Shown here: positions 1,056 to 62,900 of the stretch, one piece after another
Numbering within the stretch: the stretch's first letter is position 1
How the letters are laid out: the number at the start of each line of letters is the position of its first letter
Assembly: GCA_030390025.1 (NCBI GenBank)
Contig: JASTWF010000760.1
Span: forward strand, 62,001 to 126,000
Origin: Squalus acanthias
Taxonomy: Eukaryota
Direction of reading: 5' to 3'
DNA: 64,000 nt
Notes under the pieces: generated by a model
The model's input: only the letters and a program-made list of their open reading frames with translations
What the model was told of the DNA's origin: nothing
The model's database searches: none
Translations under genes and position numbers: made by a program

Positions 1056-1493
1056 ATGTGCTCCCCATGTTCATTATTGATAATAATGGTCGTGCTGCCC
1101 GGTGAGTCCATGTTTAAATGGCCAGTGTGTGTTCCATGGGTTGTATTCACTCACAGGCTTTTCACATATTTTGTATTTTGTTACAGGAACGAGTGGCGAA
1201 GATTCAGTTTCTCAGGATCCGCCAGAATTAACGTCTCAGGAAGGACAGACCATAATACTGAACTGTAGTTACTCGGCAGAGTACGGTGGCTCAACTCTCT
1301 TCTGGTACATCCAGTACCCCGGGGAAGCTCCGATATATTTACTGAAGAGATACGGCAAGGGGCAGGGGGTAAGGTCTCCAGATACCCCAGACCGATTCTC
1401 TGCTGATTTGGACCAAGACAAGAAAACGGTTCCTTTAATCGTCTCCGGGGCTCTTGTCTCTGACTCTGCCGTGTATTTCTGTGCGCTGAGCCC
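1056..1493 (+). CDS. TRAV/TRDV: TCR alpha/delta V segment, apparently functional (leader 1056-1101, V exon 1187-1493)
   Basis: Leader MCSPCSLLIIMVVLP|gtgagt; acceptor tacag; V exon DSVSQ..LNC..WYIQ..DSAVYFCALSP. RSS: CACACTG (1494-1500), 23-nt spacer, ACAAAAACA (1524-1532). Confidence 0.93.
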
Positions 1494-1872
1494 CACACTG
1501 TTACAGGGGCGCAGTCACTCCGTACAAAAACAAACTCTCACCTCCTTTCATTGAATCAGATCTTGGACCTGGATTATGATCAGATAATATAACGCAAACC
1601 AAATTATAAAGACGAGTTTGGACGAATGGCCTGTTTCTGTGCTGTAATTATATGTATTATTCCCATTTATATCGGCTGTGGGAGTTCTCATGGTCAGAGA
1701 GCAGCTCTTTTAATGGGACTCTCCGGCACTTATACCAAACAACATGAACTATTTCCCTTCACTGCCTCCACCTCACAGATTGACCATGTTAAAGGGCCAG
1801 CGTTGGGTTTAATCCCACTCCAGTTCACTGTTGTAAGGAGAACAATTTCACTCCGTGCCCCGCTCCCCGCTC

Positions 1873-2030
1873 TGACGTCATGAGTTGGAGAACAAAGGAA
1901 CTGTGAGATGATTGGATGACTTGGAGAACAAAGGAGCTGTGATCTGATTGGATGAATTGGAGAACAAAGGACACGTGAGCTGATTGAATGTCATCTGTTG
2001 ACTCTGTCAGGAATGAACCAATCGGCAGTG
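1873..2030 (+). promoter_or_regulatory. V-gene promoter-like region: CRE plus tandem ~35-bp units with AACAAAG and ATTGG
   Basis: TGACGTCA at 1873-1880, three ttggagaacaaagga..tgattgg units and CCAAT, upstream of the leader ATG at 2126. A paralogous region lies at ~52930-53050. Confidence 0.5.
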
Positions 2031-2125
2031 AGACCGGATATTACTCAATATCTTCCCAGCTCTTGACTAAAACAATTACATGTTCAACCCGTTATGTTCA
2101 AATCCGTCATCAACTCTCTGCAAAC

Positions 2126-2177
2126 ATGTTGGGTGTGTCTTTTTACTCAGTCGTCGCAGCTGCAGCTCTATTAACCG
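2126..2177 (+). pseudogene. Orphan TCR V leader exon (V exon not found)
   Basis: MLGVSFYSVVAAAALLT-g|gtaagt is paralogous to the leader at 53136-53187, but no matching V exon follows here. Confidence 0.7.
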
Positions 2178-59404: not shown

Positions 59405-60015
59405 TTTTTTTATTCGTTAATGGGATGTGGGTGGCGCTGGCAAGACCAGCATCTATTTCCCATCTCTATTTGTCCTTGAGAAGGTGATGGTGAGCCGTCT
59501 TCTTGAAACGCTGCAGTCTGTGTGGTGAAGGTACTCCCACAGTGCTGTTAGGGAGGGAGTTCCAGGATTTTGACCCAGCGACAATGAAGGATCGGCGATA
59601 TATTTCCATGTCGGGATGGTGTGTGCCTTGGAGGGTGGTGGTGTTCCCATGCACCTGCTGCCTTTGTCCTTCTAGGTGGAAGAGGTCGCGGGTTTGGGAA
59701 GTGCTGCCGAAGAAGCCTTGGCGAGTTGCTGCAGTGCATCTTGTAGATGGTACACACTGCAGCCACGGTACGCTGGTGGTGGATGGAGTGAATGTTTAAG
59801 GTGGTGGATGGGGTGCCAATCAAGCGGGCTGCTTTGTCCTCAATGGTGTCGAGCTTCTTGACTGTTGTTGGAGCTGCAATCATCCAGGCAAGTGGAGAGT
59901 ATTCCATCACACTCCTTACTTGTGCCTTGTAGATGGTGGAAAGGCTTTGGGGAGTCAGGAGGAGAGACAGTCGCCGCAGAATACCTAGCCTCTGACGTGC
60001 TCTTGTTGCCACACC
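59405..60015 (-). mobile_element. Non-LTR retrotransposon (LINE) RT C-terminal and 3' fragment
   Basis: RARQRLGILRR..STIYKAQVRSVMEYSPLAW.. Confidence 0.85.
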
Positions 60016-61084
60016 ATGGGCCAGTTAAGTTTACATAGAACATAGAACATTACAGCACAGTACAGGCCCTTCGGCCCTCGATGTTGTGCCGAGCATTGTC
60101 CGAAACCAAGATCAAGCTATCCCTCTCCCTATCATTCTGGTGCGCTCCATGTGCTTATCCAATAACCGTTTCTGGTCAATGGTGACCCCCGGGATGTTGA
60201 TGGTGGGGGATTCGGCGATGGTGTGGACATTAGTGAACTAAATCGTTTTTTACAACAATATGATCGTTTCATGGTTACCATTACTGATACTAGCTTTTTA
60301 TTTCAGATTTATTTTAATTAACTGAATTTAAACTAATAGTTCAGGGAAGTGGCGTTGAGGTAGAAGATCAGCCATGATCTTATTGAATGGCGGAGCAAGC
60401 TCGAAGGGCCAAATGGCCGACTCCTGCTGCTATTTCTTATGCTTTTATGTTCTTAGTCTTTTGTATTCAGTCGGTCCTCTGACTATCTGGCACGGAGCCA
60501 AGAACACACCATGTGTGTCCTTAGAGATTATTATTCGATTAATGTTTGTTCATCAGCTTCTTCTCTTGTCCTGAATTTGAGCTTCTGGAACCTGCTTTTA
60601 CTGCAGATTTCACTTTATATATGGGCAAGTCTCTATAATTTTGAGAAATGTTCAATAAAGTTATTAGAATTATACGGGTCTTCCCCACCCGATCTATCTC
60701 TGTCTACACTGTAGACTGATATTTTAAACCAATTATTATTTGTCCGTTTGCCGTGCGTTATATCCGAAGCAGCGGTGCACCTGTTGCAGTACCCGCAGGT
60801 GTGTTTATTCTCAATGGGACTGGCGGTTCCTAAAGATACAGAAATGCACATCAACCATTTTTGATCTCATGCAGTTAATACAATAATCAGACGGAATCAG
60901 TATTCGATGTGAACGGTTTTATATGAGTTTGATGTGGATTCTGCTCGGGGTCTGCGCGCACAGGAATGTAGTCACGTGTCAGTGTCTGACCCGCTGTGAT
61001 AAACAGCCCACAACAGGCAGCAGCTGTGACCCAGAAACCTGCGGCAGTTATTGGACGAGGCTTTAGCTCGTTCCCATCACTGTG

Positions 61085-61388
61085 AGCCTCAGTGCACAGT
61101 AATGCACCGCGGTGTCAGTCAGCCGCAGCCCCGAGATGGTCAATCGGTACAAGTTCTCTGACCGCTGGACTGTATCAGAAAACCGGCCTTGAGCGAAATC
61201 CGCCTGATATTCAGCGCCGCCGCTCGTGTACCTCCGGACTGCAAACTCGGGCTGTCTGCCTGGGTATTGGCGGTACCAGAACAAGTAATAACCATCGCCG
61301 GGATAGGTGCAGGTTAAAGTGACATCTTCTCCCTCCGTCTGTGTGAGCGAGGACTCTCGCTGAGTAACAGAATCTCCATCGCTCAGAT
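61085..61388 (-). CDS. TRAV/TRDV: TCR alpha/delta V exon, open; the candidate leader (~62105-62060) appears decayed
   Basis: DLSDGDSVTQRESS..LTCTY..LFWYRQYPGRQPEFAV..DTAVHYCALRL. RSS CACAGTG-23-CCAATAACT. Confidence 0.88.
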
Positions 61389-62456
61389 CTGGAACACACG
61401 GTGAAAGAAAGCGGAAATCATCGGTTAAAGGTTCAAACTGAACTAACTGACGGTGAAAATGCGCAGCGAGTTTTACATAAAATTAAATAGAATTTACTGC
61501 ACAGAAAAAGGTCATTTGTCCCAACCAGTCTATGCCGTGTTTCTGCTCCACACGAGCCTCCACCCAGCCTTCTTCATCTCCCTCTATCAACATATCCTTC
61601 TATTCCTTTCTCCCTCGTGTACTTATCCAACTTCCCCTTCAATGAATCTATGCTGTTCGCCTCAACTATTGCTTGTGGCAGCGGATTCTGCATTCTAACC
61701 TTGGTAAAGACGTTTCTCCAGAATTCACCATTGGATTTTTTGTGATTATGTAGATGAAGATGTTCAGCGTGTTTCTCTCACTGTCAGTAATCAGGCTGAG
61801 GTGGTTGACGGGCCTCGGGTTTGATTAACCTTCTGCTGGGGACAAACAAGGGGAAGATTTCCTCTGGTCTTCCAAACACAGCGGGAAATCTCGTCCGATC
61901 GCTAGTTTAGTAGAATCGTCATTCATTGTTTTAGAACGCGTTCACTATGTCACTAGAAGTAGCGACCAGAGGAAATCTACCACTCAGAGCGGACACCTCG
62001 GTGTAGACACGAATATCACAGGAGAATGAGATTATTGCTCTCGGTGAGCCGTCACACACCGTCAGAAATTAAACCAACACTCAGAAAAGGGAAGGTTTAG
62101 AACCCTTTGAATATAATCCCAAATCTAAGCAAAGCTGCACACTTCTGTGCTGGTGTAAGGGGTTGGAAATGAAATAAACACAGCGGCAGTGAGGAGGGAA
62201 ACTTGAAATTGAACAGACATTACACGGTACATTGGCCGATTAAACCTGCGCGGGTTTACTCCTGTTCATCCCTCATTATAGAGTGAATGAAATCTAAAAC
62301 CATACTCCTCTATTAAGTGCTGCTGGGAGCTGCCCTGTGGGAATATTCTGTCCTAATCAGACCATCACAGGCGGGTATTCCGGCCACACACTGTTCTATT
62401 TACACACGGTGTGCTGCAGTTTTTGTACAGGACGAGCACAGAGCTGTGCAGCTGTG

Positions 62457-62900
62457 GGTCTCAGAGCGCAGTAATACACGGCGCCGTCTGACAGCTCCGC
62501 CCCAGAAATTGTCAGTCGAACCGCGCTCTCCTCTGCGCTCAGCTCTGCTGTGAAACGGTCCTTGGCGAAGTCAGCTGGGAAGGTGCCGTATTTGGTGATA
62601 AACAACATGTTCACCGGAGGCCGAGCGGGAAGTTGCCGGTACCAGAAAAGCTCAGGGTTTGTATCTGTTGTTTTAAAACTACAATTCAGCGTCACCGCTT
62701 CTCCTTCCCGCACCATCCTGGTCGAATAGTCTTGGTGCACGGAATCGCCGCCAACGCTATTGGCTGGAAGAGAAAATAATCATTTACAAATATCCGCACC
62801 ACTAACCGGACCTATTGGTGTGTTTTCTACTCGGATTCCACATGTACTTACACAGCACAGAGAGCGCCAACACCACACTGAAATAAACAGGGAAATACAT
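62457..62900 (-). CDS. TRAV/TRDV: TCR alpha/delta V segment, apparently functional (leader 62900-62852, V exon 62763-62457)
   Basis: MYFPVYFSVVLALSVL|SNSVGGDSVHQ..LNCSF..WYRQ..DGAVYYCALRP. RSS CACAGCT-23-ACAAAAACT. Confidence 0.93.

Follow-up and report, generated by a model that had tools for sequence, protein, structure and literature searches.

The IgM cluster and the surrounding V segments

The window, a stretch of 64,000 nucleotides from the genome of Squalus acanthias, carries a single IgM cluster on the forward strand (16169-36228), which comprises leader, VH, D, J, constant exons, secretory tail, TM1 and TM2. The leader exon (16169..16214) splices in frame to the VH exon (16345..16650), whose open frame shows Y37, R42, R44, L45 and F47 in FR2 (Kabat numbers were assigned by hand count). 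The heptamer and nonamer of the following 23-RSS (16651..16689) equal those of several paralogues that carry CH1. Further downstream, two 12-RSS enclose a germline-joined D1-D2 (17079..17163). The 29 bases of its coding part (17107-17135) consist of the whole D1, one extra base and the whole D2. In unjoined paralogues the RSS arrangement is 12/22 for D1 and 12/12 for D2, and the fused D of the window is 12/12. The J element with its 23-RSS (17488..17574; JH 17527-17574) has kept W103 and has a GT donor.

The first constant exon after J is C-mu-2 (25706..26017, splice sites intact). It is followed by C-mu-3 (28184..28492), whose N-terminal cysteine likely forms the bond between the heavy chains, and by C-mu-4 with the secretory tailpiece and a penultimate cysteine (29012..29403; AATAAA at 29432 and 29442). 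An internal donor for the membrane form lies in C-mu-4 after 29341. The intron between CH4 and TM1 contains a 53-base minisatellite of about 66 copies (29835..33279), and TM1 (35952..36079) and TM2 (36220..36228, VK and stop; AATAAA at 36292 and 36674) complete the cluster. All splice sites are canonical, and the frames of L-V, J-CH2-CH3-CH4sec and CH3-CH4-TM1-TM2 are free of stops. CH2 to CH4, tailpiece and both TM exons are present, the mu domains being about 57-64%, 69% and 90% identical to Triakis IgM. Of a canonical minicluster, V with 23-RSS, D and J with 23-RSS are found, but one fused D takes the place of two separate D segments, and of the four constant exons CH1-CH4 the first is deleted. 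With CH1 absent and a single D that is a fused D1-D2, the gene is not a complete IgM. A sequence-only reading of this locus regarded the cluster as apparently expressible in secreted and membrane form. Both reading frames are indeed open, but the product would be devoid of CH1, which had been overlooked.

Twelve V segments or fragments of non-IgH type flank the cluster, three on the left and nine on the right, in both orientations; seven appear intact. On the left are an intact TCR alpha/delta-type V (1056..1532, +; leader ATG at 1056, 23-RSS at 1494), a TCR-type V that is probably frameshifted and has a weak RSS (3633..3934, +), and a TCR-type fragment without RSS (9284..9379, +). The right side, likewise of TCR type, begins with a V that has an in-frame stop and a 24-base RSS spacer (46711..47016, -), followed by an intact V with 23-RSS (47944..48246, -) and three further intact V (50322..50665, 51731..52071 and 53480..53814, all +) with 23-RSS at 50627, 52033 and 53776. 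Beyond these lie a V with degenerate 3' end and weak RSS (54353..54640, +), one with an in-frame stop and a 23-RSS at 57662 (57380..57700, +), and two with open frames, the first with a weak nonamer (61075..61377, -) and the second with a 23-RSS (62444..62752, -). The earlier statement that VH and every TCR V possess a 23-RSS thus applies to VH and most TCR V, with the 24-base spacer and the 9284 fragment as exceptions. The embedding itself, also noted previously, is confirmed by non-IgH V on both sides. The right-hand link contains no N. The left-hand link crosses the N interval 12435-14471 and is supported by two paralogous copies, one on contig C29 and one on C449, which follow the order of the window before and after this interval at 85-99% identity. 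Paralogues of the leftmost V (1056..1532) sit at the same position upstream of VH on both contigs.

Across the 203-kb contig of the window (C3620), 23 non-IgH V and two NAR-like V were found, and no TCR J or C. Of the 24 matches to the one NAR-like V that was checked, 23 belong to V domains of the shark new antigen receptor or to shark-type nanobodies. The contig therefore has the make-up of a TCR alpha/delta V array, with V exons bearing 23-RSS, no adjoining J or C, and interspersed NARTCR segments. Searching with a TCR V returned 150 scored matches, 128 of which (tallied by hand) lie on C29 at 5.98-10.29 Mb, an interval that also contains 28 IgM CH2 loci. Contig C911 carries D-delta, J-delta and J-alpha with 12-RSS, as well as an IgM C region and V that are paralogous to the TCR-type V of the window. 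TCR constant regions were located by J arrays and a custom C1 profile; the C-delta and C-alpha exons on C911 are named by position only, with C1-set likeness seen for both. In a PDB search with one flanking V, TCR alpha/delta scFv were among the best matches, a second flanking V was uninformative, and a homologue search with a TCR V returned three uninformative gene models. C3620 is unplaced, opens with a long tandem repeat and is a mosaic of C29-like and C449-like blocks; comparison with the examined C29 and C449 regions led us to reject a plain allelic haplotig.

For the elasmobranch antigen-receptor complex, Flajnik et al. 2025 (PMC12227049) describe IgM miniclusters set among TCR alpha/delta V and NARTCR segments, and VH-like TAILV segments directly upstream of TCR-delta, then TCR-alpha. 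The layout of the window is identical, and the linkage is, as had been acknowledged, not new. Since embedded intact IgM clusters are the norm in this genome and the layout is already in the literature for other sharks (PMC12227049), the embedding of an intact cluster is not the outstanding feature for which it had been taken. The position among TCR V is the normal layout of the shark antigen-receptor complex, and embedding alone adds nothing to the published record. In the parts of that account covered here, including a term search of its supplements, an elasmobranch IgM cluster without CH1 is not mentioned.

Loss of CH1

In paralogues, a CH1-containing block of about 575 bp is flanked by two 6-base direct repeats. 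The window retains one copy of the repeat as deletion junction (24861..24866, +), and about 575 bp including CH1 are missing between the repeats. In a protein search with the shark IgM reference P0012, V, CH2, CH3 and CH4 map to the window and CH1 does not. Over the whole 203-kb contig, a sensitive search with CH1 DNA from paralogues detected the intron flank only, and a C1-set profile found no CH1. For comparison, CH1 is present within 8 kb at 44 of 50 IgM CH2 loci. The 20-mer spanning the junction occurs exactly three times in the genome, on three contigs (control matches: 0). These contigs are rearranged mosaics of 88-99% identity with differing flanks, and not simple alleles. An assembly error is thus dismissed as the cause of the CH1 loss, since the same junction is found at three genomic places. 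In the intron, the window cluster and CH1-bearing paralogues share about 87-91% identity; hence, the deletion is recent and therefore of independent origin in an elasmobranch.

The window cluster is the only intact one of three CH1-less copies. Its sister L022 has a frameshift in CH2, together with a V that is 99% identical to the window VH and a good RSS, and in L024 the V heptamer is broken and FR2 is ordinary. Over J-C the three copies are mostly 93-97% identical, with 99.7-100% in CH3 and CH4 even in the frameshifted copy. Broken clusters are common, as seven IgM-type V loci have stops or frameshifts. A single clade of the three CH1-less V was rejected because L024 is placed elsewhere in the tree; the single change in the group table of this tree compares labelled groups only. 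Three CH1-less CH2 loci on contig C1978 were treated as unrelated debris (stop present, deletion junction absent); for two of these loci, roughly 30 kb of upstream sequence revealed neither V nor CH1. Loss of an extra CH2 cysteine does not go together with loss of CH1, since most CH1-bearing paralogues also lack it. Relative to the consensus, CH2 of the window has 8 non-synonymous and 1 synonymous substitutions, and CH1-bearing paralogues have 5-11 and 2-5. With patterns this similar, CH2 yields no statistical evidence of selection on the C region.

The light-chain face of VH

FR2 was compared in 32 VH rows, three of which were unreadable. In the window VH and L022, 6 of 14 positions depart from the family consensus, and 26 of the 29 readable VHs have 0-2 such differences. 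Y37, R42 and R44 occur in none of the 30 other family VHs. In the former VL interface Y37, R44 and F47 are present, and L45 and W103 are kept; L45 is also the residue of all 30 family rows, and at position 47 the window VH has F, not G. Of the four hallmark positions of camelids, the changes involve 37, 44 and 47 (PMC9100996). Three of four private framework changes fall into FR2 (binomial p 0.025, calculated post hoc from rows that are not independent), and the four framework amino acid changes private to the window VH, set against two synonymous codons, are no excess over neutral expectation. Hallmark-like changes also occur in clusters with CH1, namely F47-V48-A49 in L018 and L099 and F37 with E44 in L016 and L017.

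Over 27 bases that include the Y37 codon (16445..16471, +), the window VH is identical to one of the VH-like segments in the TCR-delta locus (C911:377001). Just upstream of D-delta, C911 has 30 VH-like matches, and all eight examined contain Y37. In seven of these segments, identity to the window VH is 85-92% over the first 113 bases; past this point it drops to 57-59% in six of them, and the seventh is offset by an indel. This change from high to low identity suggests gene conversion between the IgM VH pool and the TCR-delta VH-like pool, and Y37 may have been copied from the latter. The remaining FR2 of the window does not follow the delta-locus segments, since these retain W47 and lack R42. 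The tree groups the window VH with IgM VHs, namely L022 and L018 (support 99/95), and separates it from the C911 array; with a D-J-C of its own it is not an IgH-like V of the kind that lies upstream of D-delta without them. Judged from its signals, the VH could nevertheless be used dually, as the 12/23 rule would allow its 23-RSS to pair with the 12-RSS of D-delta, J-delta and J-alpha on C911. This is not special to the window VH and applies to every VH of the array with an intact 23-RSS. IgM V on TCR-delta has been reported in nurse shark (PMC5931798, PMC12227049).

A candidate heavy-chain-only IgM

We consider the chances about even that the cluster encodes a young heavy-chain-only IgM, with an origin separate from that of CH1-less IgM in chimaeras. 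Two RAG joins would be needed instead of three, one between V and the fused D and one between the fused D and J, from which a longer CDR3 core would be expected, and J would splice in frame to CH2. A chain without CH1 would escape retention by BiP, and the light-chain bond via the CH1 cysteine would be impossible. Dimers would form through CH2-CH4, TM1/TM2 would provide the surface form and the tailpiece cysteine would polymerise the secreted form, with the VH also borrowable by TCR-delta. CH1 loss releases a heavy chain from BiP (PMC2150980), and it has been reported for ratfish IgM (PMC3149040). PMC3149040 characterises heavy-chain-only antibodies by a missing or strongly modified CH1, a more polar or charged surface where VL used to bind (37F/Y, 44E, 45R and 47G in camelids), a varied primary repertoire produced by rearrangement, and secretion as antigen-binding homodimers free of light chain. 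In the window CH1 is absent; for a repertoire, one V with two open junctions and intact RSS is available. Several observations count against this reading: two of the three CH1-less copies (L022, L024) look dead, L45 and W103 are kept, F47 is not G, and hallmark-like changes are present in CH1-bearing clusters. Further, Y37 may simply derive from the TCR-delta VH-like segments, the private framework changes do not exceed neutral expectation, and the CH2 substitutions resemble those of paralogues with CH1.

No listed RNA set contains the VH, the best shares being 0.36 or less, consistent with related species. When contigs of four such RNA runs were aligned to 16100-29500, joints of the types leader-V, V-J, CH2-CH3 and CH3-CH4 were seen, as was a J end leading into CH1 sequence. 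A J-to-CH2 joint was not among the 15 joints listed (2348 further), and none of the contigs listed bridges the deletion junction, three of the four runs continuing into undeleted sequence; such contigs drop rare variants and count neither for nor against expression.

Three other explanations were weighed. The cluster might persist as a V donor for TCR-delta, its VH becoming TAILV-like; in T cells this VH would recombine with D-delta or J-delta and pair with V-gamma, and the CH1 deletion would be tolerated decay of a C region no longer needed. This is favoured by Y37 in all eight examined C911 segments with the exact 27-base run over its codon, by the conversion suggested by the seven partly similar segments, by L022, which preserves V and a good RSS above a frameshifted CH2, and by the nurse shark precedent (PMC5931798, PMC12227049). 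We nevertheless regard it as rather unlikely, because W47 and the missing R42 of the delta-locus segments do not match the window FR2, the D, J, C, tailpiece and TM exons of the window are all intact, and about 30 dedicated VH-like segments already adjoin D-delta.

Also unlikely, in our view, is a functionless young duplicate in a birth-and-death array that lost CH1 by a chance microhomology deletion and whose other exons are intact only through short time or homogenisation by paralogues. The high identity of the CH1-less copies over J-C, near complete in CH3/CH4 even when frameshifted, the seven broken V loci and the absent selection signal in CH2 would fit such a duplicate. However, three of the four private V changes are located in FR2 and thus on the light-chain face, the most altered FR2 of the family belongs to a CH1-less gene, and a CH1-less mu chain is viable in chimaeras. 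An assembly artefact behind embedding or CH1 loss is very improbable. C3620 is admittedly short, unplaced and mosaic and opens with a repeat, but the identical junction lies on three contigs with differing flanks and bears the clean signature of microhomology, the links on either side of the cluster are found again in paralogues, and interleaving is genome-wide and published.

A more detailed version of the heavy-chain-only reading is put forward tentatively: a recent, independent and rearranging elasmobranch heavy-chain-only IgM that retains intermediate steps, namely CH1 deletion by microhomology, a light-chain face partly remodelled by TCR-delta gene conversion and a D1-D2 fusion lengthening CDR3, with a VH that possibly serves both as single-domain antibody and as TCR-delta V. 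Heavy-chain-only antibodies have probably arisen only a few times, at least four according to PMC3149040, and the age of the known cases has erased the order of steps. In Squalus, CH1-bearing paralogues of about 90% identity and two sister copies in different states would permit asking in which order CH1 loss and interface change occurred, and whether TCR-delta V segments supply interface changes. If true, the cluster would constitute a second shark single-domain antibody scaffold besides IgNAR, and a polymeric one.

A CH1-less elasmobranch IgM was not described in the literature searched, and prior mention elsewhere is possible. A close counterpart is the holocephalan CH1-less IgM (ratfish COS5; PMC3149040, PMC2150980), likewise a mu-type chain without CH1 that is predicted to be free of light chains; the ratfish gene has also duplicated CH2, whereas the window gene has not. 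A complete V-CH2-CH3-CH4 was found only in Callorhinchus P0073 (UniRef100_A0A4W3GAG4), among 38 shark-type homologues and 142 representative matches. This protein, known as a gene model only, has a polar FR2 with Q44-R45 in contrast to R44-L45 in the window VH. In Pristiophorus P0049, CH3 is missing as well as CH1, and the model seems to be of poor quality.

Camelid VHH antibodies (PMC9100996) share a product without CH1 and an altered FR2, with Y at Kabat 37, a charged residue at 44 and a change at 47. They are, however, IgG with CH1 spliced out, whereas in the window CH1 of an IgM is deleted from the DNA; L45R and W47G are absent from the window VH, and its one V contrasts with a repertoire of VHH genes. 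Partly germline-joined shark IgM (VD-J, VD-DJ, VDJ; PMC5192425) shares a RAG-type coding joint in the germline, and the V / D1D2 / J arrangement of the window, with both outer joins open, is not among the forms given in the portions of that paper covered. Nurse shark IgM1gj (P0017; PMC5192425, PMC4279169) likewise combines three constant domains with germline joining. It lacks CH2 but keeps CH1 and light-chain pairing and has a full VDJ join, whereas the window cluster lacks CH1 and has only D1-D2 joined.

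Loss of CH1 and fusion of the D segments

When the full shark IgM reference protein P0012 was mapped to the window, CH2 (25706) was the first constant exon past J, and no CH1-like sequence was found in the 8.1-kb J-C interval. A search with the CH1 DNA of six paralogues matched the downstream intron flank alone. According to alignment with paralogues, the missing block of ~575 bp comprises the CH1 exon and both its splice sites. In the paralogues a direct repeat of 6 bases flanks this block; the window retains a single copy, at 24861-24866. The 20-mer across this junction occurs three times in the genome (control matches: 0), on the window contig C3620 and in the sister copies L022 (C29) and L024 (C449). 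CH1 lies within 8 kb of 44 of the 50 IgM CH2 loci, 3 carry the same deletion, and the remaining 3, all on C1978, are stop-bearing orphans. The latter (241912, 369889, 615517) are near-identical exons, each with a stop; for two of them the preceding ~30 kb was examined, and neither CH1 nor V was found there. Since the flanks of the three CH1-less contigs are rearranged, at 88-99% identity, the three loci are distinct copies that stem from a single deletion.

The window holds the only whole copy of the three. Leader-V, J-CH2-CH3-CH4-tailpiece and CH3-CH4-TM1-TM2 are in frame with GT/AG splice sites. L022 carries a 1-base deletion in CH2; in L024 the V heptamer no longer starts with CAC, and D and J are fused. 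The sequence-only reading had held the cluster expressible in secreted and membrane forms, with which open frames and splice sites agree, but it overlooked the loss of CH1. A canonical IgM cluster is rejected for this gene, as CH1 is deleted and D1-D2 are fused. Positions 1-37000 are mosaic. The C29 copy is the closest match to the DNA before V and to V itself (mostly 96-99%), and the C449 copy is the closest to the V RSS, the fused D and the J-C intron, which implies recombination near the V end.

The single D consists of the whole D1, 1 extra base and the whole D2 (29-base core). The extra base is palindromic to the D1 end, hence P-nucleotide-like; the joint is shared with L024, and its component parts are visible in unjoined paralogues. 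We infer a RAG-type coding joint in the germline. Such a D would leave two joins to make, and CDR3 would tend to be longer because the core could be trimmed at 2 ends, not 4. Many IgM clusters among the fetched loci (L016-L033, L076-L107) are partly or fully germline-joined (VDD-J, VD-DJ, V-DDJ, V-D-DJ, VDJ), and unjoined ones are an apparent minority.

Framework 2 and the TCR locus on contig C911

In the VH exon (16345-16650, +) and in that of L022, 6 of 14 framework 2 positions depart from the family consensus; L018 has 4 such differences, and the other 26 of the 29 readable rows have 0-2. Y37, R42 and R44 (Kabat) occur in none of the 30 other family VHs. Three of the four private framework changes lie in framework 2 (p 0.025, post hoc, with 3 indel-bearing rows dropped). 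Compared with the camelid hallmark positions 37, 44, 45 and 47 (available part of PMC9100996), 37, 44 and 47 are changed, whereas L45 and W103 are retained. Counter to a hallmark, however, F37 and E44 occur in CH1-bearing L016 and L017, F47-V48-A49 is common to L018 and L099, and CH1-less L024 has an ordinary framework 2. L016 and L017 lie on C29 (V at 7.78 and 7.45 Mb) in VDD-joined clusters. The best-scoring single-V homologues are shark IgM chains (74-75% identity). Identity as TAILV, a VH-like segment just upstream of TCR-delta, was rejected, since the tree places the window VH among IgM VHs, with L022 as sister and L018 next.

Contig C911 carries paralogues of the window contig's non-IgH V segments. 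On its + strand, an IgM C region at the contig start is followed by 30 VH-like matches (373717-519385, L056-L059; spacing mostly ~4 kb or multiples) directly upstream of D-delta, the sole D found (8 bases, 12/23, 557.9 kb). Nine J read as J-delta (561-576 kb), a C-delta-like C1 exon (near 583 kb), 24 detected J read as J-alpha (681-721 kb) and an alpha-end C1 exon (near 782 kb) complete the series, both C1 exons being named by position alone. We take C911:557890-782600 (L039-L055, L110) to be the delta/alpha end of the TCR locus, in which the first J-alpha lies ~100 kb past the C-delta-like exon. All 8 examined segments of the VH-like array carry Y37; in one of them a run of 27 bases across that codon is identical to the window VH. 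Over the first 113 bases, 7 examined segments are 85-92% identical to the window VH in DNA; beyond, 6 are just 57-59% identical. The examined segments are IgM-like in FR1-CDR1 and divergent past the start of framework 2, with a sharp chimeric boundary. These segments are thus a second possible source of Y37, and the pattern suggests, without proving it, gene conversion between the IgM and TCR-delta V pools.

Predicted product and rival explanations

CH1 binds BiP until light chain takes BiP's place, and chains lacking CH1 exit with no light chain attached (available parts of PMC2150980 and PMC3149040). Given the deletion, intact frames and signals, fused D and altered framework 2 present in the DNA, a B cell rearranging the window cluster is predicted to make a V-CH2-CH3-CH4 chain that would reach the cell surface and also be secreted, in dimers or polymers free of light chain. 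The chances of such a product are, in our estimate, about even. By prediction the gene would work like a heavy-chain-only antibody, and it is a candidate member of that class. Considerably less probable is a VH serving as TCR-delta V donor while its C region decays, to which the Y37 common to the C911 segments and the 27-base run point; both readings can hold together. Marginally less probable again is a neutral young duplicate, with which the lack of a detected selection signal on CH2 is consistent. An assembly artefact is very improbable.

CH1-less IgM has been reported in ratfish, there with a CH2 duplication (available part of PMC3149040). The Callorhinchus gene model P0073 (UniRef100_A0A4W3GAG4) has the domain order of the window gene, V-CH2-CH3-CH4, with Q44-R45 in framework 2, and is likely the counterpart of that ratfish IgM. 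Nurse shark IgM1gj, as far as the accessible source describes it, lacks CH2, whereas the window gene lacks CH1. In the literature searched, where coverage of central papers is incomplete, no CH1-less IgM was found for any elasmobranch. The CH1-less elasmobranch cluster appears new, as a variant of a type already described; an IgM cluster among TCR V is the known part.

Setting in the V array and other elements

The window spans positions 62001-126000 of C3620, an unplaced contig 203 kb long; the genome measures 3.7 Gb. V segments were found by RSS scan and six-frame translation and confirmed with Pfam. The window contains a single IgH cluster (16169-36228, + strand) and 12 non-IgH V segments or fragments in both orientations (7 apparently intact), 3 to the left and 9 to the right, so that TCR V segments on both sides were rightly claimed. 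The right-hand link is gap-free (zero N) as described, and the left one, which crosses an N interval, is backed by two paralogous copies collinear either side of it. Across the whole 203-kb contig, non-IgH V segments number 23, and neither a J nor a C of TCR type was found. Two of the 23 are NAR-like; the one checked matched shark new-antigen-receptor V structures, which would fit NARTCR cassettes of the delta locus. L004 and L005 (C3620:34126-45164, - strand) hold these 2 NAR-like V and a likely supporting V-delta; this region, which lies to the left of the window at a distance of 17-28 kb, is taken as a NARTCR cassette. Of 150 scored matches to a TCR V query, 128 (hand count) lie on C29 at 5.98-10.29 Mb, an interval that also holds 28 IgM CH2 loci. 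In the accessible part of PMC12227049, TCR alpha/delta V exons sit between IgH clusters (section 6) and great white shark IgM genes alternate with TCR V and NARTCR (Table S1). The embedding is thus ordinary and the layout already known, as the sequence-only reading had acknowledged.

A 53-base minisatellite (29835-33279, ~66 copies) occupies the CH4-TM1 intron; it is also present in both sister copies, partly inverted in that on C29. Just downstream of J, 17613-18875 is an old tandem duplication (~640 bases, ~75% alike) common to the paralogues examined and possibly an intronic enhancer region. Broken reverse-transcriptase-like retroelement pieces, presumably LINE-type (33187-34330, 37700-40260, 42189-44400), fill the introns and the stretch that separates TM2 from the first V on the right.
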